Source: Marsupella aquatica
Taxonomy: Eukaryota; Plantae; Marchantiophyta
Reading direction: 5' to 3'
DNA length: 64,000 bases
NCBI GenBank assembly: GCA_973895155.1
Contig: OZ316892.1
Span: 30,743,702 to 30,807,701, forward strand
Part shown: positions 2,202-64,000 of the stretch, one piece after another
Position numbering within the stretch: the first letter of the stretch is position 1
Layout of the letters: every line of letters starts with the position of its first letter
The notes under the pieces: generated by a model
The model's input: the letters and a program-made list of their open reading frames with translations, nothing else
The model's database searches: none
Told to the model about the DNA's origin: nothing
Position numbers and translations under genes: made by a program

Positions 2202-2220
2202 AAAACAAGCCATAGCCATA

Positions 2221-29182: not shown

Positions 29183-29236
29183 ACCTCATTCTTAGCAATA
29201 GTAAAACTTCTCTCCCCAGTTAATTGTCTTGCTACA

Positions 29237-30523: not shown

Positions 30524-30541
30524 TCCCCGGCAGCGGCGCCA
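30524..30541 (-). promoter_or_regulatory. Primer-binding site, tRNA-Asp type
   Basis: Minus strand TGGCGCCGCTGCCGGGGA, 9 nt after the 5' LTR end. Confidence 0.9.
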
Positions 30542-30550
30542 AAAATCATA

Positions 30551-37870: not shown

Positions 37871-38732
37871 AATATATACAAAATGTTGTGAGGAATCATG
37901 CCGTCAACGTAGCAAAGTTTCTACTGCAAATACAGTCCACTTTCCTGCCTTGTCCGATAATCCTTCACGATAGTACTGTACAGTGCATCATTCCATTCTC
38001 GCGTCATTTGAGAATTATTCCCTTACGCCTTCCCTAACCCCAGAGTAGCTAACAAGCTTTCGAGCACGTTTCACGACCTATCTTGGGAATCTGGGAAGCT
38101 CAGACAGTTGAGATGCAGATGGAACTTCATATCGTTTTGGTCGAATCCAGACTGTCAACTCCCTTTGAAGCAGAAGAACATGGCCACTTTACTAGAATTG
38201 AATTATCTAATCTTCGACATGGATGTATTCGAAGATCTGAATACATCCATCAGTCTCGGCCAAAGGCTTCCTGCAAGTCGATGAACTCGAAGACTCATTG
38301 CTTGAAGTTTTCTGCTGGTGGAGGTCGCCATCCGCGCATTTGATCTTTATGCCCTTGATTTTCGTCTCCTGTCACCAATGTGAGTTCCCTTCCAGTACCA
38401 TGTTCACAGCAAGGCAGCTACAGTATGCAAATTCTTCTTTTGATCTAAGGACAATACTCAACTAACATGTCAAAAGAGGTTTCTACATATCAAGCCAACA
38501 GCTTGATTTCACGCACCTATAATTTCGACACTCAAAACGAAACTTGCGTGACATTTCTCTTACATGAAATGGTCTTTCAGCCAGAAGAGGGCTAGGTACA
38601 ACCCCCAATTGCAAAATCTCAAAATTAATGTTACAGAATTGCGACACCCAAAACCTGACTGTATCTGCGCTGCCAGTGACTACTGATTTGAACTCACTTT
38701 CCAGCCAGCCCAACACAGCTTTCAATCTGGGT

Positions 38733-42215: not shown

Positions 42216-45185
42216 CTCAGGTGCTCTGGGCTTCCACTGTCAGCACCACAACCCACGATCAGATCTGCTACCAGGATAAAATCCAGGAGATTCCACGAGG
42301 TGCAATGAATTTGTAGTTATTTCTTGACGACTATGTTTCCAGTGATCTTTCGACAATGAGTGTTTTCAGAAATGGATAGCAGACCGGTAAGCCTCTCGAG
42401 TTCTAGGGTGCATTCCTACCTCCGTCCAAAGATGTATTTTCTTGTCTCCCTTGCTCTGCTGTGATCTTTGGTACAGATAACTTGCAAAAGTTAAATGACT
42501 CCTTTCCAACTGAGAGTAACGGCTATCTGTCAAGAATGCAATGATCTTAGAATAGAATATTGAAATAATTGTGAAAGGCATATCCAGGTATCAACAAGCT
42601 CGTTCCTTCTCCCGTATTTCACTGTACCCACAGAAAGGACAGAGTCAAGAGCCATCGAATTGGTACTAAAATACTTCAGCCAGGACAGGACAGACTCTTA
42701 GGGCATCTTGACAGGCGTTCATTTGTAAGTTGCCTACACTGTCCTTTCTGCGCTATACACAAACCAGAATCTCAGGTTTCTGAAAAGAGACTACTTAGAA
42801 ATAAAGCCTAGCCATCATCTGTAGAATCCATCGTGATTAGACACAGATGACATGAACGTGAAAGCGCTTCCCTCCCTCTCCTACAATTCAGAAATAAAGG
42901 TTATCCATCATTCTTGAACTTGGCCTTATACAATCCGTGAAGAGACACATACGACATGAATGTAACAGCCTCCCCTCCCCTCCCCTCCCCCCCCCACCCT
43001 GTGCTTCTTAACACGAAAAAGGAATCAAACTTGAAGTTCAACTCAAGTCTTGATCACATAAGCCTCATAGCAGGAAATTCCCGCAACTATAAATGTCACA
43101 CCGTGGTGCTGGAACAAGAGTTTCTGTTTAAAAGTAGGTACGCATAACGTTGAAATCGCTCTTCAGTCTCATTACCTGAAGGCCGTGTACAAGAACAATG
43201 GCGGATGCCAATACCAATCAAACCGGAAGATGAAGGATAAACTCTGCAAATCAAACGTCTTTGTTGAGAATGTATTCAAGGTCGTTTGGTCACATCAAAT
43301 CCAACAAAATGACATGCATACAAATTTAATCATACCTGGCTGAGGACTGTTGCCTAAAGCGGTCCATATCCAAAAGTTCCATCGAGTCAGCTCCGTTCCC
43401 GTGCCGGGAATACGGAGCTCAATGGTACAGTTTTGAGAAATACGATCTTACCTGTTTGACAAAGGTTCAAATCAGTCTAAGTAGTGCAATCTTGCAGAGC
43501 CCTCAAATTTCAAGTCTCATCTTTCCTTCCCATGGACTTAGAAAGAATATTCATTACGCGAAGGCTCTGTTGGGGAAACCTTGCCCGGGCAGAGGAATCT
43601 CAGCTCAGCGTAACAGTTGGAGGAAGCCCTAGAAGCATAGCAGTAGCGGTATCTTCTCCAGGATCAATTCCTCCTGCTGGACTCTTTTACGAATCATCCC
43701 AGCTTTGCCATCAAAACTTGAGAATCAAAACCACAAGTTTTGAGAAGAAAAAGTATGAGAAGATCTTCCATCCAAACCCCAAAGCAACCCACCGTCATAC
43801 CTGCACATAGCCCTCTGAAAAACTATGGCGCGAGTGCTCTTGTTTATCGCCCTCCAAGAAAGAGCCCTTTCCAACTGAAGTGTCCTGCATACCAAACGAC
43901 GACATTTCTTCAAAGAAGAACTTGTGAACAAGTGTTATGCAGACCGTGTAAGTAGCAAATTGGGCAGGCTCGACAATTCGTTCAGAACAACAAGTTGAAG
44001 CAAGTGGCAACAAAATTGATCTAGATTGTAACGGGAAATCAGGAGACGGGCAGCAGGAGACGGGCAGCAGGAGACGTCATGCAAGAAATGAGCAGGACTT
44101 GAACCAGGATGGACAGTATCCCGGGCTGAAAAAGAGATTCTGTCCCGCTTCCTTGGGCGCCCAGAGGTGAGTAGTATAGTTGCCCAGCAATTTAAGGTCG
44201 AAACGCAGAAGAACATCCAGTATAGCTAGGGCCTTACTAGGAATTCTCTGCCCAAAGGACATGACGAGAGGCCGTGTAAAAATGGTAACGCGAACCTAAC
44301 AGGGATCACTGGATTCGTCAGCATGTACTGTAGCTACGACGCACAGCTCGATACCAACTCCCCGAGACGCAACTAGAGCAATTGAGCAATCCTAAGCCAC
44401 TACGACAAGTAATTCTTAGCAGATTGTGAATTCTACAAGGATTGTTAGCTCATTAAATTAACTGGTGAACCACCATCCAATAATACATTCTTAATTTTGG
44501 TTTCTTTTATATTTTACAGCATAATTCATATTTGGCGAGTCTCTACGTGGTGGATTAAGGACTTCCTCTGTCGTCGAGTGTCATTTACTTTTCATCCCAA
44601 GTCATTCTCGACGGGGGTCTCTGAGATTCTGAGATGGATTCTCATCGACTTTTACCTAGAATCCTAGTTGGCGAGGGTCTCTGACATGCGGTCGCGCTCT
44701 CTGGCGAGCCTCTCTGTAGTGGATTAGGGACACTTGGGGTCTACCTAACACTTCCTCACTCGGAGTGTCATTTAGTTTTCACCCTCAATAATTCTCGGCA
44801 GGGGTCTCCAGGATGGACTCGGGTCATTTGGGACAACAGTATTTTGTACTCGGCAAGTGTCTCCAAATTGGTTTTGGTTCTCTTGTTGCCCACGGTCCAT
44901 TTTTACCCATGGTTTCCTAGTCGTAGTGTCGTTACCTGTTGACCTTTAGTTGTACTCGGCGAGCCCCTGTGAGATGGATTTGGGCCTCGTTGAGGATGGT
45001 AGATCTGTACGGACATTGTCGTTCTTTACAAACACGCGATCCGTACGGAATTTGATGGTCTGAACATTGAAAAGTACTGTACGGTGAGGCTTTGCATGCA
45101 CTTTTGGGTCCATCATCGTATTTTGGCGATGGTCTCTGACATCGGATGTGGGATAGAACCAATTTGGCTCCTTCATTTGAAATGG

Positions 45186-45940: not shown

Positions 45941-48900
45941 CACTAGTAGAAATCGAGGGGTATTTAGACCCCATTAAACGACTATTCAGTTCCATATAGG
46001 ACTTGGAAATGACTGGGAAGGACTCCAGTCCTTTATAGGACTGCGAGTCGTATGTTTTGTTACTATAATCAACTGAGTCCTTTATAGAACTGGTTTATAA
46101 GTTGTTTAATAGACTGGATTTTCAGTCTATTGTAGTCTTTGTAGGGGTAGCTTTGGTGAGTCATTTTCAGTCTTTTATGGGCTGCGATGGTGAGTTGTTG
46201 GGAACGACTAAAAAGGTTATGGAGGGTAGTCTTTAAATATACTTTGTGGGTTCATAAAACGACTAAAGTAGACACTTTGTGGGGTATGTATAAGTCTTTC
46301 ATGTCAACTGGAAATGAGTGATGAAGACCCCACTATACTACTTGGAATGAACTCACTCTATAAGCTCACCATTCACCATGTTAACATTAGAACACATAGG
46401 GTTTCAGAAAGCCATCTTCTATACCATGTACACTAATATGAATTCACAGATTCAAACATCATAGACTACAAAGAAGGTCACAAAGCATTCGTCTATACCA
46501 TACACACTAGTACTGAAATGATACAAAACATATTCAAGTATCATAGACAATCACCATAGAGCCATAGTTTGACATCAATTATTTGTTTCATACATACAGA
46601 ATTCAGAAATATACATGTCACACACAACGGCTCCTTCATCCTCTTTACCAAATGGAAAAATTGGTACAGATATTTCTTGGATCTTTTCAAGGCAATGTCA
46701 AAATGTAACAATTCACATGATTCTATCTACACTTGCATTCAGTCACTACAGACTAACACACTCTGATGGCCAGAGCACAAGAGATCCTACTGCATCTACA
46801 ATTATTTCCTGAGGTGGATCATTGTCTCTATTCGGAAATGGCAAATTATAATCAGATACAATCACTGTAGTTAGCAACACTACTACATGGTCATCCGGGA
46901 CCACTTTGCCATAGAATTTAGCATGATCCAGTCGCAAAATGCCTGTACCCACACATACATGCAAGTCATCCTCCCATGATAGAAGATTATGGACTGGCTC
47001 TACAGTGGCTATCACCTACACCTTACCCTGGCTGTTTTTCTTGGCTTTCCTAGGTGACTTATACATGACATTATTCATACCTTGGTTGCGAGTCATGACT
47101 TTGGCACGAGTGTTTTGTGCTAGTGATCGAGAATTGGCTACACTCTTCTTCAAAGAATCTGCATCCATATTTGACACTTCCAATTGTGTAGCAGGATTTC
47201 CCTGCGAAATCATCTCAGTATCTGCCAACATTGTACTTGCTTCAATTGAAGCATCTACAATCTTACTTGCATCCAATGTTGCTCCCAAGTTTCAACGTCG
47301 CTTCACCCTGCTCCCACTTGGTTGAGAGTTTGTCAACTTTGCATCAACTACAATTCAGTGCCATGTCCAACATAAGTCAAACACTCATCACATGTGCTAA
47401 ATGTACATGTCACCAACCACAAAGTTGTCACTATCTCCTTACCATTATGAACAACCTTCTTCCCCTTCTTTGTCGTTGCCATATCCTCCATGTCTGCTTC
47501 TGCTGATCAATAAACACACCACAATATTCACGATGAATCTATTAACCACTGAATTGTTGCTCAACATTCATATAGAGGAATTTAAAGCATCAGCTTACCT
47601 GATACCTCCTTGGCTATGGTCACTGAGGCACTGGGCACATCTTCTTCATTATTGCTCTTTGAATCACCTGATACATCAATCATGATGTCACTTCAGATCC
47701 CAGTTCATCCAACCAGTTCTTACAGAAAAGATTACCTCCAACCGGCTTAAGCTTCACAAAACTCCAGGCACTTTTCAAATGTAATGTACTGGATCATAGC
47801 AGGTTACCTGTCTCAGCAACCTTCTTGCCCTTCTGCTTACTGATTACAGGGTCCTTCTCTGCCTCCACTCTTCCTGCATTCAAACCATTCACTCAATTCA
47901 TGAAAACTTACTTCTAACATTTGAACATAGGACACAATGAACAATGGGCCGGTGTCATACCTGTGTCAGATTTTCCAATTCCCTTTTTTGTTAACAACGG
48001 CACACTTTGTACAATGTTGCCCTCATTGTTTGGTTGGGAACCACCCAATTTTTCAATCACAAGCTTGAAATTAGATTCCATTGATGTAAGAAGGTTCACT
48101 ACAGATGCCTCCACAATATCCAAACGATCAGCCAATTTATCTTCCACTCAAGGGAGTCCACACTCTAATGACTTCAACCGTTCACACATCTCTATGAGAG
48201 TTGTAACAGTTCCCTGTCATAACACAGCTTACATATCTCAGATAACTGTCCCCAAGCACTAGTTGCTTACTTCCTACTACATTTCTTTCTTATGCTCAAG
48301 GCCAAATAGTCACAGAACATACACAGTTACAACATAATCACCTGTTTGGAAGTCACACTTGTCACCTCACTCCTTTGTTTCATGAACTCCTCTCTCACTT
48401 CTTGTGCTGATGGTTCTTCACCTGTCAATTTCTTCTGCAATCCACATAAATATGAATGAAACCAAGTGTTGATTGTCAATGAAAATGTAATAATGGTAGC
48501 AAGATGATAAGTTTGAGGCTTACTATCAGGCATGTCACTGCCTTACCAATTGTTCTGACTTTCACTGGAGCATAACTTCCTCTCCTAGCCTATGAAAGGT
48601 GTTTCACTTTGCCTCGAGCATTTGACATCAATTCACTCTTGCTCTGCCCAGCCTCCGACATGAACCCTTTGATTAACCGTGTCCATTGATCCAATTCCAA
48701 TGATGGGGGTGGTGGCATTCTCCTGTTAGAACCATTGTCTATCCACATCCTTTTCAACATATGACTCTCTTGTTTCAAAATCCTCATTGCATAATCTGAT
48801 ATGCAATCTTCAACTGGGCCCTTACCATCATTACCAACATAGTCCCACCGTTCAAGAATGTCCTTGCAGATAGCAGCCCAATCAGCTTTGTTCTGACTCC

Positions 48901-49140
48901 TAAACTCTGTAATGCTCAAATCTAACCAACGCAATACTTCCCCTCTTAGGTCAGAATGCCAACGGTTCTTACCATCACATGTGGGAGTTATCCAACCATC
49001 GGAATTCACTTCTACTTTACCAAATTTGTTACTGTCTCCTGCCTTGGTACTCCCTGAAGCGCTACTAGGTGTCCCTCCACGGCCTGGTATCCCCCCACGG
49101 CCTGGGGTCCCTCCACGGCCTGATCTCCCCCCATGGCCTG
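45941..49140 (-). mobile_element. CACTA (En/Spm) transposon end with a multi-exon TnpA/Ptta-like ORF2 remnant, interrupted at 49141 by an LTR
   Basis: Terminus CACTAGTAGAAA at 45941, GACT/AGTC-rich subterminal repeats to about 46340, and ORF 48590-49009 (PPPPSLELDQWTRLIKGFMSEAGQSKSELMSNAR) of Ptta/En/Spm type. Confidence 0.75.
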
Positions 49141-49255
49141 TGTGATGCCTAGCCAGGAATCACTCGGCCAGTTAAGTGGGTAAAGCAGGAATGCACCCTG
49201 GAAACACCTTAGTATAGGGATAAAACAAGGAAAATATAAACAATTAGGGGCGACT

Positions 49256-52200
49256 ATGGAACCCGGGCCGAGGCCGGAGGTAAGGACGCTGGGGGTGAAA
49301 ACTCGATTAGGGTTAGGGCGCGCTAAGCGTCGGCAGCTAGGAAGGATCAACGGGAGGAAGGACCGGAAGAGGAGAGGGGTAAGGAGCGCTTGCAGGAGAT
49401 GGTGGCTCATTTGCGAGCACGAACTAGGCAGACGACTACGGGAGGCCAACTACTGTCAGCTGCTTAGGCAAGCACTCGGGGAGAGAGTAGATACCAATGA
49501 TTGACCTAAGGAGGGTATGAGCAACGTCAATCAAGCGGCACATTTTTGGGGATGCCTGTTCGAACGGGCAACTGAGTACATCAAGACTTACGAGGATGAA
49601 GAATCAGAAAGGGCAGCTAGAGAACGACAGGAGCTCGCTCGATTGTGGGAGCTGCAGAAAATGGCTTTCTTAGGAGGCGAACTCATCAAGGCCGAGTTCT
49701 TGTGGACACCTACTTCCAATCAGCTCGACGATCTTCTGTTTTGCGAAGACAGAATCATCGGCATTCGAGAGGCCATCAAGAACTGCAACGACATACATTG
49801 GGAATTGAAGGGTAGCACGGAAAGGTGGACCCAGGCAACGGTGCTAGGAGAAACCTCCACGGCAGCCGAGATGAAGAGGAAGGGAGCCGTCAACGATGAA
49901 GCCACCCCGACAAAAAGAACGAGGTCGGCGGCACCAAAGAAACCAGCCGAACAGCAGAGCAGGAGGCAGAGCGAAGCCTAGGAGGAGGAGGTCGACCCCA
50001 TCAACGTCATTCCAACCAGGGATGACACCTGGAAGGGCTGGGCGGCAACTCTACCAGTGGAGGTGCAACTACATTTTGCACGGGAGGAGGATGCATGCTT
50101 TATGGCCATGCAGACCAAGAAGTACCAAGGCTTCATGGCCGGATCCGGCTTGGAAGCCTTTGTAAGATTACCATGGCTGAAGCCGGAGGTGCCGGATTCA
50201 GACCTATTAGAATTCGTGGGGTCATGGGAACCCGAGACCAATTGCACAAGGATATATGGGAAGGATTTCTATCTTACTCCCAAGGTAATTGCCGAAGTGT
50301 TTGGCTTGCCGATAGGCAATAAGACCAAGGTTGATACCAGGAAGACCTTGCCTGACAAAGAGTTCTGGTCGTTCCCCGGACCATCAACGAAGAATGGCTT
50401 CTTCCGGAACACCTGTACCAACCTGCACATAGGAGAGATGATCGACTTCTTGTGGGTAACCATGCATTGTAACTTGCCAAGGGCAGAGATCGGCAAGGCA
50501 CAGGTCTATCTGGCAGAGAGACCAGACCCAAGCCGGGACTACAACGGGTACCTCCTCAACCAATTGAAGAAGATCTTAAAGGAGGAGCAGCAGGTAATCG
50601 GCATGGGGAGCGTGTCGCGGCTTGGCTATCACATGCCGCTGTTGTGCCAGTATGCCAGAGGTCAGACCTTTGCCCCGGTACTTCCCCTACAGGCAAGGGC
50701 ACCAGTTCCGGAACATAGGCAGGCAACGGAGAAACCCAAACCGCCCGACAGTCCTACAATCGACCAGGTGTTTAGACCAAGAATGAAGGACTTGCCGATG
50801 CAGCAACCAAGCATGCAGAATCTGCTGGAGAAAGAAAAGAGATCAGCATCGGCAAGGACAACGGCAGCGGCAACAATGCACGACACTGTTCCAGAGGTAG
50901 GCCTAAACCGGCTTACAAGGGAGAACCCCTTTACTGGAGTCAAGGAGAGAAGGAGGCCGGAACACAAGCTGGGAGTCCGGATGTATGTAGGAGCCTCTAG
51001 TCCCGAAGCCGAGGAGAAGCAGGCCGTAACTCTCGGCCACGGCAAGGAGAAAAGGAGATCAACACGGAGACCGGAGGAGGAACCAAGACCGGCAGGAGGT
51101 GAAGCCGTGTTCACGCCAAAACCAGGAGACGAGCGGGAGAAGCTGGTAGTCCAAGCCGAGGAGGAGGCGGTGGAGGACTACAGCAATGATAACTCCGGCT
51201 ACGGGTCGGATCATCATGTTCCAGGAGTAAGGACCTGTGGTCGCTTCATCCCCACGCTCCCAAGAGTAGTCCGAGGGGACTCGAGCCAGCAGAGCAGCCC
51301 CGAGTCTCCCCCGCCAGATGTCGCTCCCCCAAGCTTTGACGGCATAAAACAGACGGTGCAAGAATTTCAGGAGCGAATCAGGGAGGAAGAGGAGGCAGCC
51401 CTGGCTAGAGAGAAGGATTTACCAGGAGGGGAATGGCCAGAGAACATCAGGCGGCTAGCCAAAAAAGGAAGCAAACCTCTAGCCACGATTGAAGAGATCC
51501 GCAAGACGGCTTGGGAGCAGAGGCCGCGATGGGGGATGCCGATCACTTCTACCTACTCCACCTACGCTAAGAATAGAGCAATGGAGTATGGTGAGATGTG
51601 TGGGGAACTTGCGCTCGGCATCTTTGGGGAGGAGTTGGAGGTAGGACCCTTTTTCCATAGGGAGCAGTTGGAGAAGCACCAATTAGATGAAGCGGTGACT
51701 TTAGAGAGAAGCAAGAAGGACGAGGTCATTCGGCGGCTTAGGAGCATGGAAGCCGAGATTGAAGAACTAAGGGCGGCCAAGAAAGCCCAAGATGAACTGC
51801 GGATTAAGCGGCATGAGCTGAACATCATGCAGGGGCAGTTGGACACAGCGCAGGCTGATGGTCAGATTATCAAGGATAAACTAACTCAGACCCAGGGAGA
51901 ATTGGCCGACGCAATCAAGGACAGGAAGAAATGGAAGAAGGAGCTGAGAGATGCAGAGGAGGCCCATATAGCAGTCAACAACCGGGTCATGGCGGAGACC
52001 CAAAGAAAGGAATGGGCGTTGAAGGGGGAGCTCGAGAAAATCCGCAGAGCCCTGGAGCAGAAGGAGGCCGAGTTAGGGAAATCCTATCAAGGGATTATCG
52101 CGCTACAGTAGGAGCTTGCGTCCCTGACGGCCAGCTTCAAGGCCGACCTAAGGGAGAAGGACGATATGCTCGATCAGACTTATGCCAAGATGAATAAAAT

Positions 52201-52578
52201 GGAGTCTGAGATCGTGACGGAGCTCGACAAGGAGCTTAGAGCAACCCAGGAGGAGAGGGCTACCTTGAAGAAGGAATTGGAGGAAGCCCACAGGGAGCAG
52301 GAGGAGACCAAAAACGAGCTGGAGGGGGCACGTAAGGACCTGGATGAGACCCAGGAGGAGTTGGAGGAAATCACGAGGAAGATGGAGAACCTACAGCGGC
52401 GGGCCAACAACCAAATAGAGCGGCTGAAGAAACAAGCCGCAATATTTAAATGCTTAGCTGCAGCAGGTCCATCTCCCGTTGGGGCGAACCAGTTACCAGG
52501 GGTGGTAATTGCCGAAGGACAAGCCGCGCCACCTGCACCAGTGCCGGAAGTAAGTGGGAAGGGGAAGGGACCAGCTGC
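49256..52578 (+). pseudogene. LTR-encoded PMD-like/coiled-coil protein, copy 1 (three in-frame stops; continues at 61278-61626)
   Basis: ORFs 49256-49504, 49517-49981, 50057-52111, 52166- and 61288-61626 are colinear with the 1220-aa ORF at 57534-61196. Confidence 0.9.
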
Positions 52579-54246
52579 TGTGGTGCGTCCCATGGCTCCC
52601 TAAACCCAAGCAACCCCCCAGCTCAAGCCGATTCCCGCGGGTTTCACGCTTGGCGAGGCCGTTTCCGCGGCTTAGCGGCATGGGACGCTGCTAACCTTCT
52701 ACTACTACTATTAACATTTTACACACATATACTGGACAGATCCTTCATCGGGTCATGAGATACGTAGCCGGCCTAATATAGGCCTTCCCCTGTCTTCCCC
52801 TGTCTTCCCCTCCGTCTTGTTAGGTATGTTTGGATTCCGCCGCCGGAATGATCCCCAATAGGCTTGGTTAAGCCGCTAAGACCTCTCTCAGCTCGACACA
52901 TCCAACTCTCACTCCCCTGCTTACTTTCCTTCCTTCTGTTGATGTGGGCACTCTTCACACAAGTTAATGCGACACACAAATAGCAAAATGACTCATTCTG
53001 ACTGAGTCATACCATGCACTTGCCATACAAACAGTACATCTCATACACAAGTTCTGCGAACTAAGCCGTGAGGCCAACTCTATTCAGCTCTTAGGCATGA
53101 GGAAACATGAATATACACAAGGGTCACTGTATGACTGTCACTTGCCTCTCCAACGGTTAATACGTGCAAACCGCACTTTTCTTCGCTTAAACCGTTGGTA
53201 TCGTATTACGGGGTCGTGGAGGGACGCTATTTGGATTCTTTTCACACCAGGATGAGTATTTTGGTTTCCGCTCCCGGAAATGTAGGTTTTGATCAAGTCT
53301 ACCGACTACCCTCACCCCACAGCTTTTGATCAAGTCCTGCCGACTACCCCACTACACCTTCACTCGGAGTCACCCAAAGAGTGCTGTCACCACCCCTACT
53401 CACAAGGCCGACTCAAACCAAGCAAGTTTCTTCAAATCATAGAACGGGAGAACACAATTCGGAAAGCGAAAAAGGGAGAAGGAACACACAACAAAAGCCC
53501 ATCAAGTCAAATGTACAGATCCATATCTCTTGGGAAAAACGATACACATTGCATGAGTAACCCGGCCTCCTGCCGTCTACTCAACTCCTGCCTCTCCGGA
53601 CAATGAGTATGGCTCCCCCTCACTACTCTGAACACGCTTTCAAACTCCTCAGGCTCCACTCTATCCCTCCTTGCTAACTTCACACTGAGTCCCCCTAACT
53701 ACTTCGGGGCTATCCCCCTAAATACTGAAAAATCACACCAAAGCACCCCTCACAGGGTCACAACGGTGGCGGCTACCCTAGCGGCGCCGCTAAAACCTTG
53801 CACTAAGAGAAATCCTTAAACTGAAGAGGAGCATGCGGCACACACATGCTGCTAAAACCCTAAACCCAAAACAAGGGGGCCGACGGTGCCTTCGACGGCG
53901 CCCCAACAGTACACGTGAACCCTGAAAGTGAGAGGCACCCCAAAATGGCCGAAACTAGGTGCCCTTCCAAGTGCACACCTGAGCTCACCCCTGGATAGCT
54001 CTTCTTTTCCTGCTTCCGAATCACTAAGTCGCTCCCTCAACGGACTTCAGACGCCTGAGTTATGGCCGTTTCCGTACCGCAAAAACATAAGTTCTCCAGG
54101 CCATAACTTGCTCATCCTGGCTCCGTTTGAGGAGCGCCGCCTCTTGTTGGAATCAGCTCCGCGAGCTCATCCCAACAAGCCCATGAGTGACCCCCCACTA
54201 AAATGTTGGAAATCTGGAGGCCGTACACCCACGTCCGTACGCCTAT

Positions 54247-56103
54247 CTAATCCTCCTCTTCTTCTTCGCTCTCGGTGCCCGGACTTGTGCCCCGTGAGTG
54301 GTCCTCCTCCTCATCACTCACGGGAGTGAGTGCCACCGTACTTTTCTTCTTCTTCGACGGAGTACTCTTAGTGCTGCTGCTCCCGCGCTTCCTCAAAGCA
54401 GCCAAGGCCTGCCACGCCTTGATGTACCCCTCACCAATTGTGTCCTTCCAGAGGGTAGCCTCTTCTCCGGACCGCAACTCCAACGGTAGAACTTGCCCCG
54501 TGGCCATGGGAGTCCCGGGGGTGACAGACCTGGGTGGCATCCCCGTACTGACCTGAGCCTCCCGTAACGATTTCCGTACCTCCCGGAGCTTCTTCTCCAA
54601 GCTCTTACTCTTCTCCTGACTCTTCTTGGCTCCATCCAACAAGGGTCCATACTTCCCACTAACCTCCTTCACCACCATCTCGATAGCTTGGGAGATCACA
54701 TCCGGGGAAAGTGTGGAGCCAGGTGTGCCGGGACTCTTCCGTTTCCCTAGACTCAGGGCCTCACTTCTCTTCGCTCGTGTCTCAAAGGCTGCCACCTGAC
54801 TCCGTAGTGCTCCCACCTGGTTCCTCCACTCCATCACTTCTCCAGAATTTTGCTTCTCTTTGGCCAATGCTTGCCTCAACGCTCCTACTTCTTCTGCTTC
54901 CTTGGCCTTGGTGGACAAAGCTCCCTTCAAGTTGGTGATCTCTACGTGAGCTGCATTGATGTGCCTGACCTTCTCATGAATGGTCTGCTCCTTGGTCTTG
55001 ATCACCTCCTTCAGTGACAGGATGCTCTGCTCTAACGTCTCTACTTTGACTGTGGCGTGCTTGAGAGACTCCCTCAATGCGTGGACTAGCTTGAGTCCCT
55101 CGTGGACTCCCTCTCTGAAATCCCGTAGCTCTGCCAAGTAAACATCCGGAATGTTGTATTCCAGAGGCTGTTTCGGATCTCCCACGAGTGATTCAAGCCA
55201 CTCCAATGTGCAATCATCCTCCTGGTTCTCTTCTTCTCTATTATCCTCCCCACCAGCAGACAATGATTCCTCCGTGAGCTTCCCTAAAACGGTAGTGGCA
55301 ATACTCCGGATCTCCGTGGTGAGAGATGATCCCGTGTCTTCATGCCCCGGAGAACCAATCAACCCTTCTGCCCTGGCCAATACAAATGACCCCATCAAAT
55401 GTACAGCCCCACCTGGTTTCACACTCCCGGGCTCAGCGGCCAATAGCTTCTTCAATCCGTAGCACCACCATCCGTACACATGGGCTGGGTAGTTCTTGAT
55501 GTCCATAGCTACCACGAAATGCTCCTCATTCAGCACTCCGGATTGCACGTTGCCAAGAACCCGTTGATGCACCTTGGCCAGGAAGCCCTTATACTCAACA
55601 TCCTTGACAGCAGAAAGAGGGATGGCGGTGGTGGAGGTAGGATTGGTCACCCAAGTGGCCACCATTTTCAACGTGAGTTCTCCCCTGATATTCCGAGGTG
55701 TGAATGAGAATTTCTGATTCTCAAGAAACAATAGCTTAGCCAACTCCACATGGGGCACTACACGTTTGAGACATTCAAAGTAGATTCCCTCCGTTCGGAA
55801 CTCCATCCCGGCCTCAATGTCCCAGCTCTTCCCTGAAGGGATGGTAATCTCCACCTTCATGAATTCTGTAAGCCCGGTGGCTTGGAAAATGTTCCGACAA
55901 TCCTCCATCACCTTGGTGGAGGTCTTGGGATAAATTCGACGAAAAATCTTCCTACCCACCGGTGAGGAACCCGCTGCCAATCCCGTGCTCATCATAACTT
56001 CTCTCTCTTCCCTTTCCCGTGTAATCCGAGTCTCCACGTAGTCACGGTAAGCAGCCTTGTATCTCCGAATGCGTGACGCACTAAACTCTGGTTGATCTAG
56101 CAT
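54247..56103 (-). CDS. Intact LTR-encoded protein: globular, possibly PMD-like N-terminus, coiled coil and basic/acidic tail
   Basis: 618 codons, ATG-initiated and uninterrupted; IFQATGLTEFMKV resembles FMAGSGLEAFVRL of the 1220-aa protein; heptad-rich LKHATVKVETLEQSIL...; NLS-like SKKKK. Confidence 0.8.
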   Translation of the reverse strand: MLDQPEFSASRIRRYKAAYRDYVETRITREREEREVMMSTGLAAGSSPVGRKIFRRIYPKTSTKVMEDCRNIFQATGLTEFMKVEITIPSGKSWDIEAGMEFRTEGIYFECLKRVVPHVELAKLLFLENQKFSFTPRNIRGELTLKMVATWVTNPTSTTAIPLSAVKDVEYKGFLAKVHQRVLGNVQSGVLNEEHFVVAMDIKNYPAHVYGWWCYGLKKLLAAEPGSVKPGGAVHLMGSFVLARAEGLIGSPGHEDTGSSLTTEIRSIATTVLGKLTEESLSAGGEDNREEENQEDDCTLEWLESLVGDPKQPLEYNIPDVYLAELRDFREGVHEGLKLVHALRESLKHATVKVETLEQSILSLKEVIKTKEQTIHEKVRHINAAHVEITNLKGALSTKAKEAEEVGALRQALAKEKQNSGEVMEWRNQVGALRSQVAAFETRAKRSEALSLGKRKSPGTPGSTLSPDVISQAIEMVVKEVSGKYGPLLDGAKKSQEKSKSLEKKLREVRKSLREAQVSTGMPPRSVTPGTPMATGQVLPLELRSGEEATLWKDTIGEGYIKAWQALAALRKRGSSSTKSTPSKKKKSTVALTPVSDEEEDHSRGTSPGTESEEEEED

Positions 56104-56529
56104 CCATGCATCCCGAAATCAATTTCTCAATCACCAATCCCGTCACCCGTGGCAATGTCAATTCCCTGGCCCGAAACAGCCCCCGTAGCCCGATCACTTA
56201 AATTCTCTCAATTTCCCGTCACTACTCCGTGCGGCCGCCACTAATGCCTGGAAGAATGACGCCAGCAAGCCCCACTAATCCACCATGAAAGAGAGAGCTT
56301 CAAAAATAATTAGAATCTGGAGAGAGCTTCCGGCAAGAGAGAGAAGAACCCCGTTTTTGCTTTCGGCAATGAGAGGGTCGTGCAAAAGGAAGAGGGAAAG
56401 AAAAAGGAAGGAAAAAAAAATAGAACCGAAAAAACTCCTGGCGCCTTCGCCATGCGCCCCGGCCCATTTCTCGGGCCTTACCCTTGCGTCCTCCTGCGCG
56501 CGGCCCTCTGCAGGGCGCGCGGCCATTCC

Positions 56530-56805
56530 TCCCGGCTCGCGGGAGGCCCTTCAACTCCCCCCCGCTCGCGTGATCCTCCCAGCTCGCGGGAGGCCCTTTA
56601 ACTCCCCCCCGCTCGCGTGATCCTCCCAGCTCGCGGGAGGCCCTTTAACTCCCCCCCCCCGCTCGCTTGCGCTCCTTCAGCTCGCGGAGCCTCATTAATT
56701 GCCCGGGCACGCAGCCCTATGGGCTCGCGAGGCAGCCCCTTCAGCTCGCGGAGCCCCATTAATCGCCCGGGCACGCAGCCCTATGGGCTCGCGAGGCAGC
56801 CCCTC
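56530..56805. repeat. GC-rich tandem repeats (about 47-bp and 64-bp units) built on GCTCGCG
   Basis: GCTCGCGGGAGGCCCTTYAACTCCCCCCCGCTCGCGTGATCCTCCCA about 2.6 times, then CAGCTCGCGGAGCC...GGGCTCGCGAGGCAGCCCCT twice. Confidence 0.85.
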
Positions 56806-57533
56806 TTTCTCTCGGACGGCCACTAATGGGACTCGCCCTCCTGAGGAGGGATTTATTTAAAAAAACCCCCCCCTCTCCTGACTTTGCAATGGGGGTCTCA
56901 ACAATAGCTCTTGAAGCAAAACGGTAAGTCCTATGGGGCTGGTCCTGGCTAGTTTCAAGGTCCCAAAATATTTGCCCACTTAGGTCGCCGCAAATCTTAG
57001 AACTATTATGAGAGAAAGAATATAAAGTCACCTGGGGCATCATCAACCTATAATGACGGAATTAACTAAAAATTAAAAAATGGCTTATTTACATTGACTA
57101 TTAACAAGGTATCGGCCTTTGCAACCAGTTATGTGTGACTTCCCGTGACGGGGTACCCGTCACAATGACTAACCGAGAGCTTCTCGTACTACTTGATCCC
57201 AGCCCGGCTGGTGCAAACTAAAAACTTGCTAAAGAAGAGGCCCTGAGCTCCCCGCTGCCCAGGTACTTATCCTGGTAGTGGATCCGCCATTCTTTGCATC
57301 GTAAGCCTAATCTACTTAACAGTAATCTACTTGCCCGAATCTACCTATGTACAGCAAGGCAGGAGCACAAGTGTTGCTCCTACCAGTGGGACCGCAATCC
57401 CACTAAGCTAAGTGTCAGGGCCGCTCCTGGTTCTGATCCTAATCCTAAACGTGGAGATCCGTGCCCGCCCTGCCCACTCACGCCTCCTCCCTCCACGTCC
57501 GCCCTCCCTAAAAGGAACGGCGCCCTTGCACCG

Positions 57534-60500
57534 TCACGACACCGGTGGTGGATCCTCAATGGACGCCCCCAACACTTCCTCCGCAGCCACTGCCGTTGGC
57601 CCGCCTACTGACAGATTACCTGCCCTTGACCGAGTCAACTCTCCCTCGGCCTGACTGGGTCCACCTTCGGCTTCAGCCTCGACACCGGCCTCGGCAATAC
57701 CCACGGCTTCGGCTTCAGCCACCCCCACGGCTTCGGCTTCAGCCACTCCCACGGCTTCGGCCTCCCCTTCCCCTAGGGTAGTTGGATCCTTAGCCGTGAC
57801 CCTGTCTGGGGTCGGTGCTGGGTCTACCTCCTTGATCACCACGGCCTGTGAAGTCGTATTACTCCTTGACCCTGAAGGTTTCCGCTTCTTCTTCGTTGGT
57901 GGCTCGGCAGCTGGTCCCTTCCCCTTCCCACTTACCTCCGGCACTGGTGCAGGTGGCGCGGCTTGTCCTTCGGCAATTACCACCCCTGGTAACTGGTTTG
58001 TCCCAACAGGAGATGGACCTGCTGCAGCTAAGCATTTAAATACTGCGGCTTGTTTCTTCAGCCGCTCTGTTTGGTTGTCGGCCCGCCGCTGTAGGTTCTC
58101 CATCTTCCTCGTGATTTCCTCCAACTCCTCTTGGGTTTCATCCAGGTCCTTACGTGCCCCCTCCAGCTCGTTTTTGGCCTCCTCCTGCTCCCTGTGGGCT
58201 TCCTCCAATTCCTTCTTCAAGGTAGCCTTCTCCTCCTGGGTTGCTCTTAGCTCCTTGTCGAGCTCTGCAATGATGACAGACTCCATCTGGTTCATCTTGG
58301 CGTAAGTCTGTTCGAGCATCTCGTCCTTCTCCCTTAGGTCGGCCTTGAAGCTGGCCGTCAGGGACGCAAGCTCCTGCTGCAGCGCCATAATCCCTTGATA
58401 GGATTTCCCTAACTCGACCTCCTTCTGCTCAAGGGCTCCGCGGATTTTCTCGAGCTCCCCTTTCAACGCCCATTCCTTTCTTTGGGTCTCCGCCATGGCC
58501 CGGCTGTTGGTTGTTATGTGGGCCTCCTCTGTATTCTTCAGCTCTTGCTTCCACTTTTCCCTTTCTTTGATCGTGTCGGCCAACTCTTCCTGCGTCTGAG
58601 TCAGTTTATCCTTGATATTCTGATTATCAGCCTGCGCGGCGTCCAACTGCCCCTGCATGATGTTCAGCTCATGTCGTTTAATCCGCAGTTCATCTTGGGC
58701 TTTCTTGGCCGCCCTTAGATCTTCAATCTCGGCTTCCATCCTCCTAAGCCGCCGAATGACCTCGTCCTTCTTGCTTCTCTCTAAAGCCACCGCTTCTTCT
58801 AATTGGTGCTTCTCCAACTGCTCCCTATGGAAAAAGGGTCCTACCTCCAACTCCTCTCCAAAGATGCCGAGCGCAAGTTCCCCACACATCTCACCATACT
58901 CCATGGCTCTATTCTTAGCGTAGGTGGAGTAAGTAGAAGTGATCGGCATCGCCCATCGTGGCCTCTGCTCCCAAGCCGTCCTGCGGATCTCTTCAATCGT
59001 GGCTAGAGGTTTGCTTCCTTTTTCGGCTAGCCGCCTGATGTCCTCCGGCCAATCTCCTCCTGGTAAATCCTTTTCCTTAGCCAGGGCGGCCTCTTCCTCC
59101 TGCTTGATTCGCTCCTGAAATTCCTGCACCGTCTGTTTTATGCCGTCGAAGCTCGGGGGAGCAACATCTGGTGGGGGAGACTCAGGGCTACTCTGCTGGT
59201 TGGGGTCCCCTCGCACTACCCTTGGAAGTGTGGGGACAAACCGGCCACAGGTCCTTACTCCTGGAACGTGATGGTCTGACCCATAGCCGGAATTATCATG
59301 GCTGCAGTCCTCCACTGCCTCCTCTACCTCTTGGATTTCCGGCTTCTCCCTCTCCTCTTCCTCGGTAGGAGCTTCAGGCAATTCTGCCTCAGATTCGGAG
59401 CTTGAGGTTCCCACGTACATTCGAACACCTGGCTTGGATTCCGGCCTGATTCTCTCCTTGTCTCCAGCAAAGGGGTTTTCTCTTGTGAGCCGGTGTCGGC
59501 CTACCTCTGTAGTAGTGTCCTGCATTGTTGCCGTTGCCGTTGTTGTTGCCGATGCCGATTTCTTTTCTTTCTCCAGTAGTTTCAGCAGACTCTGCATGCC
59601 TGGTTGCTGCATCGGCAAGTCTTCCTTCCTGGGCCTAAACACCTGCTCGATCGTAGGACTAACAGGTGGTTGAGGCTTCTCAGCCAACGGCCTCGGCGTT
59701 GGAGCTTCCTCGGGTGCCCTTACCTGCAGGGGAAGTACCGGGGCAAAAGTCTGACCTCTGGCATACCGGCACAACAGCGGCATGTGATAGCCAAGCCGCG
59801 ACACGCTCCCCATGCCGATTACCTGCTGCTCCTCCTTTAAGATCTTCTTCAATTGGTTGAGGAGGTACCCGTTGTAGTCCCGGCTTGGGTCTGGCCTTTC
59901 TGCCAGATAGACCTGTGCCTTGCCGATCTCTGCCCTCGGCAAGTTACAATGCATCGTCACCCGCAAGAAGTCGATCATCTCTCCTATGTGCGGGTTGGTG
60001 CAGGTGTTCCGGAAGAAGCCATTCTTCGTTGATGGCCCGGGGAACGACCGGAACTCCTTGTCAGGCAAGGTCTTCCTGGTATCAACTTTGGTCTTATTGC
60101 CCATCGGCAAGCCAAACACTTCGGCAATCACCTTGGGAGTAAGATAGAAATCCTTCCCATATATCCTCGTGCAATTGGTCTCGGGTTCCCATGACCCCAC
60201 GAATTCTAATAGGTCTGACTCCGGTACCTCCGGCTTCAGCCATGGTAATCTTACAAAGGCCTCCAAGCCGGATCCGGCCATGAAGCCTTGGTACTTCTTG
60301 GTCTGCATGGCCGTAAAGCATGCATCCTCCTCCCGTGCAAAATGTAGTTGCACCTCCACTGGTAGGGTTGCCGCCCAGCCCTTCCAGGTGTCATCCCTGG
60401 TTGGAATGGCCTTGATGGGATCGACCTCCTCCTCTTCGGCTTCTCCCTGCCTCCTGCTCTGCTGCTCGGCTGGCTTCTTTGGTGCCGCCGACCTCGTTCT

Positions 60501-61196
60501 TTTTGCCGGGGTGGCTTCATCGTTGACGGCTCCCTTCCTCTTCATCTCTGCTGCCGTGGAGGTTTCTCCTAGCACCGTTGCCTGGGTCCACCTTTCCGTG
60601 CTACCCTTTAATTCCCAGTGTATGTCGTTGCAGTTCTTGATGGCCTCTCGGATGCCGACGACGCTGTCCTTGCAAAACAGAAGATCGTCGAGTTGATTGG
60701 AAGTAGGCGTCCACAGGAACTCGTCCTTGATGAGTTCGCCTCCTAAGAAAGCCGTCTTCTGCAGCTCCCACAATCGAGCGAGCTCCTGCCGTTCTCGAGC
60801 TGCCTTTTCTGACTCCTCGTCCTCGTAAGTCTTGATGTACTCAGTTGCCCGTTCGAACAGGCATCCCCAAAAATATGCCGCTTGATTGACGTTGCTCATA
60901 CCCTCCTTAGGTTGATCGTCGGTATCTACTCTCTCCCCGAGTGCTTGCCTAAGCAGCTGACAGTAGTTGGCCTCCCGTAGTCGTCTGCCTAGTTCGTGCT
61001 CGCAAATGAGCCACCATCTCCTGCAAGCGCTCCTTACCCCTCTCCTCTGCCGGTCCTTCTTCCCGTTGATCCTTCCTAGCCGCCGACGTTTAACGCGCCC
61101 TAACCCTAATCGGGTTTTCACCCTTAGCCTTACCTCCGGCTTCTGCCCGGGTTCCATGGTTGCCCCTAATTGTTTATATTTTCCTTGTTTTGTCAC
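57534..61196 (-). CDS. Intact ~1200-aa LTR-encoded protein (basic N-terminus, PMD/plant-transposon-protein-like domain, long coiled coil, acidic tail)
   Basis: Uninterrupted 1220-codon frame (first ATG at 61157) wholly inside the solo LTR; SGLEAFVRLPW...LLEFVGSW...IYGKDFYLTPKVIAEVFGLP; about 250-aa heptad region; NLS-like PPTKKKRK. Confidence 0.9.
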   Translation of the reverse strand: MTKQGKYKQLGATMEPGQKPEVRLRVKTRLGLGRVKRRRLGRINGKKDRQRRGVRSACRRWWLICEHELGRRLREANYCQLLRQALGERVDTDDQPKEGMSNVNQAAYFWGCLFERATEYIKTYEDEESEKAARERQELARLWELQKTAFLGGELIKDEFLWTPTSNQLDDLLFCKDSVVGIREAIKNCNDIHWELKGSTERWTQATVLGETSTAAEMKRKGAVNDEATPAKRTRSAAPKKPAEQQSRRQGEAEEEEVDPIKAIPTRDDTWKGWAATLPVEVQLHFAREEDACFTAMQTKKYQGFMAGSGLEAFVRLPWLKPEVPESDLLEFVGSWEPETNCTRIYGKDFYLTPKVIAEVFGLPMGNKTKVDTRKTLPDKEFRSFPGPSTKNGFFRNTCTNPHIGEMIDFLRVTMHCNLPRAEIGKAQVYLAERPDPSRDYNGYLLNQLKKILKEEQQVIGMGSVSRLGYHMPLLCRYARGQTFAPVLPLQVRAPEEAPTPRPLAEKPQPPVSPTIEQVFRPRKEDLPMQQPGMQSLLKLLEKEKKSASATTTATATMQDTTTEVGRHRLTRENPFAGDKERIRPESKPGVRMYVGTSSSESEAELPEAPTEEEEREKPEIQEVEEAVEDCSHDNSGYGSDHHVPGVRTCGRFVPTLPRVVRGDPNQQSSPESPPPDVAPPSFDGIKQTVQEFQERIKQEEEAALAKEKDLPGGDWPEDIRRLAEKGSKPLATIEEIRRTAWEQRPRWAMPITSTYSTYAKNRAMEYGEMCGELALGIFGEELEVGPFFHREQLEKHQLEEAVALERSKKDEVIRRLRRMEAEIEDLRAAKKAQDELRIKRHELNIMQGQLDAAQADNQNIKDKLTQTQEELADTIKEREKWKQELKNTEEAHITTNSRAMAETQRKEWALKGELEKIRGALEQKEVELGKSYQGIMALQQELASLTASFKADLREKDEMLEQTYAKMNQMESVIIAELDKELRATQEEKATLKKELEEAHREQEEAKNELEGARKDLDETQEELEEITRKMENLQRRADNQTERLKKQAAVFKCLAAAGPSPVGTNQLPGVVIAEGQAAPPAPVPEVSGKGKGPAAEPPTKKKRKPSGSRSNTTSQAVVIKEVDPAPTPDRVTAKDPTTLGEGEAEAVGVAEAEAVGVAEAEAVGIAEAGVEAEAEGGPSQAEGELTRSRAGNLSVGGPTAVAAEEVLGASIEDPPPVS

Positions 61197-62545
61197 TATA
61201 CTAAGGTGTTCCTAGGGTGCCTTCCTGCTTTACCCACTTAACCGGCCGAGTGATTCCTGTCTAGGCATCACAGCTGCCGAGCCAGAAATGAAGAAGAAGC
61301 GGAAACCTTCAGGGTCAAGGAGTAATACGACTCCACAGGCCGAGGTGACCGAGGAGGTAGACCCGGCAACGACCCCAGACAGGATCACGACAGAGGATCC
61401 AACTACCCTAGGGGAAGGGGAGGCCGAAGCCGTGGGTGAGGATGAGGCCGAAGCCGGGGGTGATGCCGAGGCCGGTGTTGGGGCCGAAGCCGAAGGTGGA
61501 CCCAGTCAGGGCGATGGAGAGTTGACTCAGTCAAGGGCAGGTAATCTGTCAGTAGACGGGCCAACGGCAGTGGCTGAGGAGGAAGCGTTGGGGGCGTCAA
61601 CTGAGGGACAAACACCGCTGCCATGACGGTGGTGGAGGGCCGCTCCTTTCAAGGAGGGCGGACGTGGAGGGAGGAGGCGTGAGTGGGCAGGCGGGCTCGG
61701 ATCTCTAAGTTTAGGATTAGGATCAGGACCAGGAAGCGGCCCTGACACTTAGCTTAGTGGGATTGCGGTTCCACTGTAAGAGCAACACTTGTACTCCTGC
61801 CTCGCTGTACATAGGTAGATCCGGGCAGGTAGATTACTGTTAGGTAGATTAGGCTTACGCTGCAAAGAATTAGGCGGATCCACTACCAGGATAAGTACCT
61901 GGGCTGCGGGGAGCTCAGGGCCTCTTCTTTAGCAAGTTTTTAGTTTGCACCAGCCGGGCTGGGATCAAGTAGTAATAGAAGCTCTCGGTTAGTCATACTG
62001 TGACCTTGTGTATATTCATGTTTCCTCATGCCTAAGAGCTGAATAGAGTTGGCCTCACGGCTTAGTTCGTAGAGCTTGTGTATGAGATGTACTGTTTGTA
62101 TGGCAAGTGCATGGTATGACTCAGTCAGAAGGAGTCATTTTGCTATTTGTGTGTCGCATTAACTTGTGTGAAGAGTGCCCACATCAACCAGAAGGAAGGA
62201 AAGTAAGCGAGGGAGTGAGTGTTGGATGTGTCGAGCTGAGAGAGGTCTTAGCGGCTTAACCAAGCCTATTGGGGATCATTCCGGTGGCGGAATCCAAACA
62301 TACCTAACCAGAAGGAGAGGAAGACAAGGGAAGGCCTAGAGTAGGCCGGCGACATATCTCATGACCCGATGAAGGATCTATCCAGTATATTTGTGTAAAA
62401 TGTTAATAGTAGTAGTAGAAGGAAGTTAGCAGCGTCCCATGCCGCTAAGCCGCGAAAACGGCCTCGCCAAGCGTGAAACCTGCGGGAATCAGCTTGTGCT
62501 GGGGGGCTTCTTGGGTTTAGGGAGCCATGGGACACACCACATTTT

Positions 62546-62563
62546 TGGCGCTAGATGGAGGGG
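62546..62563 (+). promoter_or_regulatory. Primer-binding site, tRNA-Asn type
   Basis: TGGCGCTAGATGGAGGGG after the LTR end CA-TTTT; one mismatch to the complement of the plant tRNA-Asn 3' end as recalled (TGGCGCTAGAAGGAGGGG). Confidence 0.75.
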
Positions 62564-62610
62564 GCATTTCTTAAGCCGTGAGATATGAAGTTAGGAAAGA
62601 AGCGTAGGTA

Positions 62611-63954
62611 ATGACTAAACCTACGCCAAGGGAAGAAAGAGTGATTCAACGGGAGAGAGCTCGACTGCAGCAGCTCGTCGGGTGGCATGATACACAGCGA
62701 CTGAGAGGGGCAGAAAGAGCTGTTAGCTCCGAAGCGGGAAGTGGCATCGAAGAAGAGATACCAGAAGAGGAGTCGGTAGGAAGACACGAGTACCCAACCA
62801 ACATGGGAGAACCTGAGGCACGACCAGACGAGAGGCCAGGGACCAGACTGAGCCAACGGTCGCGCATACATTACAAGGCATTTCATGGGAGAGGAGATGA
62901 GGATCCGGACGAATGGTTGGATGATTTCGAGGGAACCGCTGCAGCAAATGGAGAATTGGCCATCAAGATGCAGATTCTTCTCGGCCTGTTCAAGGGTGAG
63001 GCTAGGCCTTGGTACAGAGCATTAGATGTGGAAGATCAAGCCATCTGGGATATCTTCAGAATGCTCTTTGTTAAGGAGTTTCGACCCATTGGAACTTCAG
63101 AACTAGCAGTGCTGAAGTTAGGACGACTTCGGTTCAAGGAGAACAAATCCTTCAGGAAGTTCTTGCAACGCTTTCAGAAACTGGTAAGACGTACAAAGAC
63201 CAATGCATCTGAAGGTATGCAACTTCAATGGTTGGTGAATGCTTTGCCACAGAAGATGAGTTTTGTAATTAGGAAGGAGAACCCGGAGACTTTAGCCGAT
63301 GCAATTAAGGATATTCAATTATACATTAATGCAGATATCACAAGCCGGAAGAAACAGCTTAAGTCTGAGAGTTCCTCATCAGAGGAGGGATCACCCCATA
63401 AGAAAAAGGATAAGAAAAAGAAACATTCTAAGAAGTCAAGAAGTGATAACTCAAGCTCGGATAGTGGAAGTAGCAAGAGTGAGTCATCTTCTAGTTCTGA
63501 AGAAGAAAAAACTAGGAAAAGGAAGGGCAGAAGAAGAGGGAAGACAAAAGTCAAGCTGGAGGCTAAGCCACCAGATAACATCGTGGCCCTTACCGAGCAA
63601 CTTAAGGCTATAATTGCAGAGGTAAAGCCGAAGAAGAAGGTAGTACAGGAGGATAGCTCTGTATGGTGTGCCTTATGCTATAAAACTGGACACCATAAAG
63701 ATGCGTGTCCTAAACTTAATACTAATCATGTTCGGCATGTCGCCGAGATCAGACCGTGTCAGGGAGAAGTAGAGTACTTTTTAGGAGATGCCGCTGATAG
63801 TGTTTTTGGCATCAGTGAGACTGGAGCACGAGATCTATCCAACCGACCTGCATCTCTCTGGTCTGGATTAAGGAACAATCCAGGAGAGATTATCCTCGGA
63901 TTATTCAGAACCCTTCAGTACCTCCTAGGCCGAATGTGCAGAGATTTGCGGCAT
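62611..63954 (+). CDS. gag: Gypsy gag (N-terminal part), truncated by an LTR insertion
   Basis: FHGRGDEDPDEWLDDF, FKGEARPWY, Lys/Ser-rich linker and CALCYKTGHHKDAC knuckle. Confidence 0.88.
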
Positions 63955-64000
63955 TGTGATGCCTAGCCAGGAATCACTCGGCCAGTGAAGTAGGTAAAGC
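63955..64000 (+). mobile_element. Start of a third copy of the 4.7-kb LTR family, inserted into gag
   Basis: TGTGATGCCTAGCCAGGAATCACTCGGCCAGT matches 49141-49172; no PPT precedes it. Confidence 0.85.

Follow-up and report, generated by a model that had tools for sequence, protein, structure and literature searches.

A 64,000-nt stretch of the genome of the liverwort Marsupella aquatica (assembly GCA_973895155.1, contig OZ316892.1, positions 30,743,702 to 30,807,701 of the forward strand; hereafter the window, numbered from its first letter) holds a nest of plant transposons surrounding a PLS-type PPR-DYW gene (38733-42239). Self-comparison of the window together with reading of the junctions resolves four nested insertion events, and these involve a 4.7-kb unit that is very probably the long terminal repeat (LTR) of a retrotransposon and carries within it an open reading frame (ORF) of 1,207 codons. 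The parts of the locus needed for what follows are listed here, with copies of the unit named as LTRs.

49141-52578, forward strand: 5′ piece of LTR copy A; begins with TG, has the ATG of the ORF at 49256 and ends with the target-site duplication (TSD) GCTGC
52579-53135, reverse strand: 3′ portion of solo LTR copy B, ending in CA at 52579
53136-57164, reverse strand: element C, solo-LTR-like, of another family; 4,029 nt, TSD ATGAC
57165-61272, reverse strand: 5′ portion of solo LTR copy B, starting with TG at 61272
57534-61157, reverse strand: open ORF of copy B, 1,207 aa
58008-58802, reverse strand: predicted coiled coil, about aa 786-1050, from a/d hydrophobicity
59712-60401, reverse strand: core domain, aa 253-482 counted from the ATG; predicted fold like VANC21
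61273-62541, forward strand: LTR copy A, 3′ piece; second TSD copy at 61273-61277, CA end
62277-62293, forward strand: short hairpin, 264 nt before the LTR end
62546-62563, forward strand: primer-binding site (PBS) after copy A
62608-63954, forward strand: gag of copy A's element; frameshifted near 63890 and cut by a further LTR copy
63955-64000, forward strand: start of a third LTR copy, inserted into gag

Copy A consists of 49141-52578 and 61278-62541 (4,702 nt net), begins with TG and ends with CA, and is followed by TTTT, the PBS (TGG at 62546), which we take to resemble the 3′ end of plant tRNA-Asn, and the gag ORF. Its 3′ piece contains the tail of the LTR ORF to the stop codon at 61624-61626 and then about 915 nt of non-coding sequence, while its start at 49141 is confirmed as an insertion border by other runs, in which the flanks differ and the site also occurs empty. 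Copy B lies reversed inside copy A, reading on the minus strand from 61272 to 52579, with the TSD GCTGC on both sides (52574-52578 and 61273-61277), and measures 4,660 nt net once the nested element C, itself bounded by TG...CA, is subtracted. A third start of the same unit at 63955, 96% identical to the start of A, interrupts gag; it was considered as the 3′ LTR and rejected, since a contig of run X3 reads past this point into the gag zinc knuckle, which identifies an insertion. Two of the three copies in the window thus lie inside their own family, in the LTR and in gag, and further self-joints occur in other runs; a preference of the family for self-insertion is possible.

In copy B the ORF extends from the ATG at 61157, nt 116 of the unit, to the stop at 57534, is sense to gag and occupies 77.8% of the unit; in 300 base shuffles of the same stretch the longest stop-free frame was 365 codons. 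The original prediction, of an LTR of about 4.7 kb with TG...CA ends, a PBS at 62546 and TSD GCTGC, about 78% of which is one ORF sense to gag with its ATG some 115 nt in and fully open in the inverted solo copy (52579-61272), holds in each of these particulars. Two points are absent from it. The ORF of the gag-linked copy A is broken, by stops at 49502, 49979 and 52109 and by the insertion of B near codon 1084, and, at a protein identity of only 86% (1,113 columns), A and B do not form the LTR pair of a single element.

Several lines of evidence support residence of the ORF in an LTR. A 260-nt contig from X6 (62488-62745) spans the joint of LTR, PBS and gag, both ends of the unit recur as borders with unlike flanks in other runs, and the empty site of copy A is present in three runs. 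The median summed contig depth of the ORF relative to gag is 3.0, 3.3 and 3.7 in X1, X2 and X3, and that of the non-coding LTR is 2.3, 3.6 and 4.7, with a fall in depth in the bin right after the LTR end (62541); depth in X6 is patchy, so that an ORF about three times as deep as gag is seen in three of the four runs only. A ratio of about 3 is unlike an internal ORF, which would match gag in depth. Self-comparison also found no internal terminal direct repeats within the unit. It is nonetheless to be counted against LTR residence that summed contig depth is not copy number and that the runs were chosen by the ORF, that the window holds no 3′ LTR of the A/B family with a polypurine tract (PPT), and that loose-end flanks in other runs are mixed (consensus agreement 0.44-0.65), with no 3′ LTR or PPT seen among them. 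The word GTGGAGGG occurs twice 3′ of the stop codon of copy A and resembles a PPT relic, a weak sign given that the 8-mer occurs 10 times in the window.

The missing 3′ LTR with PPT and the roughness of depth as a guide leave room for a unit that is not an LTR at both ends, being instead a composite or non-autonomous TG...CA unit, or a form present at the 5′ end only of an element with short true LTRs. We consider this quite unlikely: the PBS directly follows the CA end at a joint bridged in another run, the solo copy has a perfect 5-bp TSD, the unit shows no internal terminal direct repeats, and depth is much the same over the ORF and the non-coding parts, falling for both immediately beyond 62541. 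A DNA transposon with terminal inverted repeats is ruled out by the 5-bp TSD, the PBS and the lack of such repeats. As to lineage, the gag following copy A matches Pfam Retrotrans_gag (E 5e-9) and is related (27%, E 6e-20) to the gag of a neighbour, element D, whose pol is ordered reverse transcriptase, RNase H, integrase. The Phygy and Selgy lineages are described in PMC6317226 as having a 4-bp TSD (NCGN for Phygy), a tRNA-Trp or tRNA-Ala PBS and no extra ORF, and membership in them is rejected on the 5-bp TSD GCTGC and the long extra ORF found here. For the OTA superclade (Athila or TatII), characterized by a tRNA-Asp/Asn PBS with a 5-bp TSD, the TSD agrees, and the PBS is tentatively read as tRNA-Asn; no tRNA or Rfam match was found.

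The pattern of differences between copies indicates that the ORF was under purifying selection. Over 1,185 aligned codons (Nei-Gojobori, with no transition correction), A and B differ by a synonymous rate (dS) of 0.193 and a nonsynonymous rate (dN) of 0.057, so that dN/dS, a comparison suggested with the original prediction, is 0.30 (bootstrap 0.23-0.38) and not about 1. The ratio is 0.13 (0.05-0.29) in codons 251-480, the core, where dN, at 0.015, is lower than the non-coding divergence (0.048-0.083), and 1.20 in the tail (codons 1061-1207). Third positions account for 154 of the 293 differences, and gap lengths are multiples of three in seven of nine ORF cases, the other two cancelling within one replaced segment, vs one of eight in non-coding sequence. 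Among 12 of the 17 indels relative to other runs, 11 fall in the non-coding LTR, one in gag and none in the ORF. dS reaches 0.52 in codons 481-720 and is 0.08-0.18 elsewhere, an unevenness which marks A and B as mosaics of subfamilies. The three stops in copy A fit about 2% neutral decay, so the dN/dS of active lineages is probably below 0.30.

The open frame of copy B, for its part, is rejected as proof of selection after insertion. The divergence of copy B from 11 contig pieces of X3 and X6 among the matches listed is about 0.9% (35 of 3,808 nt), and at this level about 30% of neutral frames would still lack a stop, so that openness reflects youth and not selection on a solo LTR. This comparison does not support the further proposal in the original prediction, that solo LTRs remain functionally coding, and the older copy A has three stops.

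The encoded protein is laid out as a conserved N-terminal part, a core predicted to resemble VANC and plant mobile domain (PMD) proteins, a low-complexity linker, a long predicted coiled coil and an acidic tail. The share of hydrophobic residues at a/d positions is 0.50-0.65 in the coiled coil, about aa 786-1050, and 0.17-0.30 elsewhere, the best frame having been chosen and no null run. Basic clusters lie at aa 23, 217 and 1086, and the highest 19-residue hydropathy is 1.1, with no membrane helix. In Pfam the 1,207-aa protein has one weak coiled-coil match only, and neither it nor 22 of its 23 homologs matches PMD (PF10536), ATHILA (PF03078) or Transposase_32 (PF20167) at E 0.1; the ESM Atlas gives as leads PF20167 (0.89) and PF03078 ATHILA (0.87), both under 0.9. 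The 23 relatives come from a full phmmer search, and the named homologs (four of the ten proteins looked up) belong to the liverwort Calypogeia fissa. Word-indexed protein searches with region 60-520 (673-2144-aa proteins), with the core (137-438-aa) and with the alignment (1303-3720-aa) returned nothing. No locus was confirmed in metagenome contigs with the core domain or the relative P0032 as query, nor in viral contigs with the pol of D or gag. A sequence-profile search of the PDB gave 0 matches at E 10, and a fold search of BFVD nothing under E 0.001.

Folded from its single sequence, the core gives a pLDDT of 30; with an alignment of 19 of the 23 relatives (three N-terminal-only matches and one long repetitive one were left out) the model reaches a pLDDT of 76 and a pTM of 0.72. 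Among 48,161 solved chains compared by VIA-align, the sole match with Z of at least 5 is DNA-bound VANC21 (Z 9.1-9.2, root-mean-square deviation (rmsd) 4.1-4.3, 204-206 of 230 residues aligned), the next best scoring 2.2; Foldseek likewise ranks VANC21 first (E 0.94, TM 0.48). On this modelling we hold it likely, with good confidence, that the core has a VANC/PMD-like fold. The guess of a PMD-like core made with the original prediction thus finds support at the level of fold, through the match to VANC21, and none in Pfam.

The ORF is also enriched in a short word. CGGCWW occurs 44 times in the ORF of copy B against 13.0 expected from synonymous shuffles that hold protein and codon usage fixed (z 9.7), 36 times against 10.6 when the repetitive tail is left out, and 27 times against 7.0 in copy A; CG and CGG are not in excess. 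In the seven ORFs examined from other families or the host z is at most 0.3 in every case, and in the element's own gag it is 2.1. An unbiased scan of 5-mers singles out CGGCA with z 6.5, where the largest null value in 300 shuffles was 4.9, and such an excess over the largest null appears in B and A and in none of the seven other ORFs. The word occurs on either strand and in each of the six strand-frame classes, mostly in coding DNA, without a tandem array.

With about even probability, in our judgement, the unit is the LTR of a non-chromovirus Ty3/Gypsy element equipped with a self-targeting anti-silencing cassette, that is, an accessory gene together with its own word. The predicted VANC/PMD-like domain would likely bind CGGCWW scattered through the same LTR, the bound protein would keep the promoter of the family from silencing, and the coiled coil would presumably serve oligomerisation. 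VANC21 binds to a 9-base word of the transposon that encodes it and brings about a loss of methylation (PMC5735166, PMC10398659), and VANC is described as a structural homolog of the PMD protein MAIN (PMC13547354).

A number of considerations count against the anti-silencing cassette. CGGCWW was found post hoc, and copy A does not count as an independent sample; no word array reaches significance in the 915 nt of non-coding sequence in A; and the known VANC21 sites are non-coding tandem repeats, not coding DNA (PMC5735166). The observed-to-expected CpG ratio of the LTR (0.66-0.69) does not stand out above that of the host PPR gene (0.72) or of the element's own gag (0.62), and CpGs within the motif are hardly better kept between A and B (29 of 36) than other CpGs (96 of 130). 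The fold match has an identity of 8-10% and an rmsd above 4, is not significant by Foldseek alone, and has a Z under about 13, a range in which, as the tool warns, helical folds can share a common arrangement; the core model was built from 20 sequences. A shared fold shows no function, MAIN and MAIL1 having initially been characterized as silencing factors (PMC5418596).

This last background bears on a reading in which the protein binds the word in its own LTR but acts as a repressor, or copy-number brake. MAIN and MAIL1, which carry a related domain, are needed for transposon silencing (PMC5418596), and the depletion of CpG in the LTR implies that the copies are methylated. We regard a repressor as very unlikely, however, because MAIN/MAIL proteins are also reported to bind motifs and oppose Polycomb silencing (bioRxiv 2024.09.27.615353), the sole solved fold match is an anti-silencing factor, and the family is abundant and young. 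Somewhat unlikely is an LTR-resident accessory gene with some other role, such as nuclear import or chromatin tethering of the integration complex, or a coiled-coil particle scaffold, CGGCWW then being host-factor sites or a by-product. Insertions into the family's own LTR and gag would fit targeting, as would the basic clusters fit such roles, and Athila and VANC proteins are predicted to be coiled-coil pentamers with many host contacts (PMC13547354). Left unexplained would be the conjunction of a DNA-binder fold with a family-specific word in three or four families of the window, and an env-like membrane role in particular is unlikely at the low top hydropathy given above.

The other families in the window supply the comparison. 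Element D (18582-32268, minus strand) is an intact and young Athila-like Ty3/Gypsy element, with LTRs of 1,718 nt that are 99.8% alike, TSD ACCAT and a few stops in gag-pol, and it has an extra ORF of 697 codons in the internal region between pol and the 3′ LTR. The word GACGCT occurs 20 times in its LTR, one GACGCT...AGCGTC pair lies upstream of its ORF, and a fragment at 7300-8200 that is 90% identical to this LTR over 381 nt has the same array (17 copies). Element F (1-5600), at the left window edge, has its gag on the minus strand and a PBS at 2201; an antisense ORF located upstream of this site, at about 3834-5515, contains stops, is related to the ORF of D (E 1e-18) and may lie inside a long 5′ LTR; AACCGG occurs 18 times at 3001-6000, around this ORF. 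In hhalign comparisons the core has distant relatives in the ORFs of D (E 1.5e-4, probability 51%) and F (E 1e-5, probability 82%). Element C has an ORF of 618 aa, Met to stop within 54247-56118, and upstream of it 47- and 64-nt repeats in a GCTCGCG-rich tandem array (56527-56798), with nine occurrences of GCTCGCG in the 5′ part of C (P 0.015 for the tandem repeats); homology of its ORF to the core amounts to a 23-column hint with a probability of 1.6%.

Element D also suggests how a gene could enter U3. The same 15-nt PPT word stands in D after the integrase stop (23146-23160) and before the 3′ LTR (20301-20315), a pair of matches not produced by any of 100 shuffles. The position of the PPT determines where U3 starts, and the two identical PPTs around the ORF of D therefore point to a route in which plus-strand priming switches from the PPT behind the ORF to the PPT before it; priming at the upstream tract would put an internal 3′ extra ORF into both LTRs. 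This route is drawn from the neighbour D and not from the A/B family, and it does not set the direction of change. Once in U3, gene and sites would be copied to both ends at each reverse transcription and inherited as one block. Taking the families together, we tentatively suggest, at a probability somewhat short of even, that bryophyte Ty3/Gypsy families pair a VANC-fold protein with their own CpG word, and that some moved the gene into the LTR by a PPT switch, which would make the gene its own binding array.

Expression of the LTR ORF would most likely come from the 3′ LTR copy of full elements, by splicing or through an internal promoter, and solo copies would serve mainly as additional binding sites and could not be relied on for protein. 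The usual transcription start site is downstream of U3; 115 nt of LTR precede the ATG here, with TATAAA at nt 95, close to the ATG. The U3 genes sag of mouse mammary tumour virus (MMTV) and nef of human immunodeficiency virus (HIV) are likewise sense to gag and duplicated at each reverse transcription, with the 3′ copy as the source of expression. Their products are small immune-modulating proteins of vertebrate retroviruses, and the ORF described here has no sequence or fold link to them.

The closest mechanistic comparison is with VANC of the VANDAL, Mutator-like transposons (VANC21, 9LNK/9LNJ), which is similar in predicted core fold, in predicted coiled coil and in the enrichment, within the encoding element, of a short word that differs between families. 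The carrier here is instead an LTR retrotransposon with the gene inside its terminal repeat, the word is spread through coding sequence in place of non-coding tandem repeats, and identity is 8-10%. By this analogy the element may work like the VANC system, although it is not a member of it, not being VANDAL- or Mutator-encoded. MAIN, MAIL1 and MAIL2, which contain the domesticated PMD, are fold kin through VANC (PMC13547354) and follow a similar logic of protein plus DNA motif; they differ in being host genes of flowering plants, and the kinship runs via VANC and not through direct comparison.

In Athila, Ogre and Retand elements, extra ORFs with PMD or Athila domains are internal (PMC6317226, PMC7264820), Gypsy-borne PMDs are discussed in PMC5418596, and PMC7264820 states that no function is known for the extra ORFs of plant LTR retrotransposons. 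The present element resembles the Athila/Tat/Ogre/Retand extra ORFs (PF03078, PF10536, PF04195) in combining a globular domain with a coiled coil, in the Atlas leads PF20167 and PF03078, in the 5-bp TSD and in a PBS apparently of non-chromovirus type, and neighbour D keeps its related ORF at the place usual for them, behind pol. It differs in that the ORF lies within the LTR, is from twice to several times longer than many of them and has no Pfam match. Rice Retrosat2/FRetro3 (PMC3485330) also combines long LTRs, over 3.2 kb, with an extra sense ORF ahead of gag, but its ORF0, upstream of gag-pol, is treated apart from the LTR and the element belongs to the chromovirus (Tekay) lineage. The literature search found no account of ORFs inside plant LTRs or of VANC-fold proteins in bryophyte retrotransposons; ORFs inside plant LTRs do not appear in the accessible portions of PMC3485330, PMC10508981, PMC12885004, PMC6673714 and PMC11728184. 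The survey in PMC6317226, as far as its available text goes, does not split LTR-resident from internal ORFs, and such cases may be hidden there.

Plant LTRs are usually pictured as non-coding, which a 3.6-kb gene within one contradicts, and solo LTRs of this kind can be mistaken for host genes in annotation. For VANDAL DNA transposons, sequence-specific anti-silencing is established, and a retrotransposon version would be new; if it is true, the long-unexplained extra ORFs of plant retrotransposons would gain a function and the VANC/PMD strategy would be placed in retroelements of early land plants. The locus supplies a fold, a candidate DNA word and three neighbour families with different words as built-in controls. 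It also bears on the origin of VANC, for which capture of MAIN-like host genes (PMC13547354) and a Gypsy origin of the domain (PMC5418596) have been put forward.

The remaining features of the window concern other subjects. The host flank of copy A (48590-49159, minus strand) is itself a repeat with a transposase-like frame. The element that hosts the inserted D is a Ty1/copia element (15022-35476, minus strand) with 346-nt LTRs that are 99.7% alike and a tRNA-Met-type PBS. The PPR-E-DYW gene (38733-42239, minus strand) is free of introns, contains seven 303-nt repeats that are 61-89% alike to the first, and is a recently expanded RNA-editing factor. A fragment of a long interspersed nuclear element (LINE) reverse transcriptase lies at 11374-12632 (plus strand), and an AT-rich tandem duplication of about 850 nt at 36116-37873. 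A similar hairpin word (62277, 53283 and 2388) stands 147-264 nt before the 3′ ends of the unrelated LTRs of A/B, C and F, and is possibly a conserved R/U5 signal.

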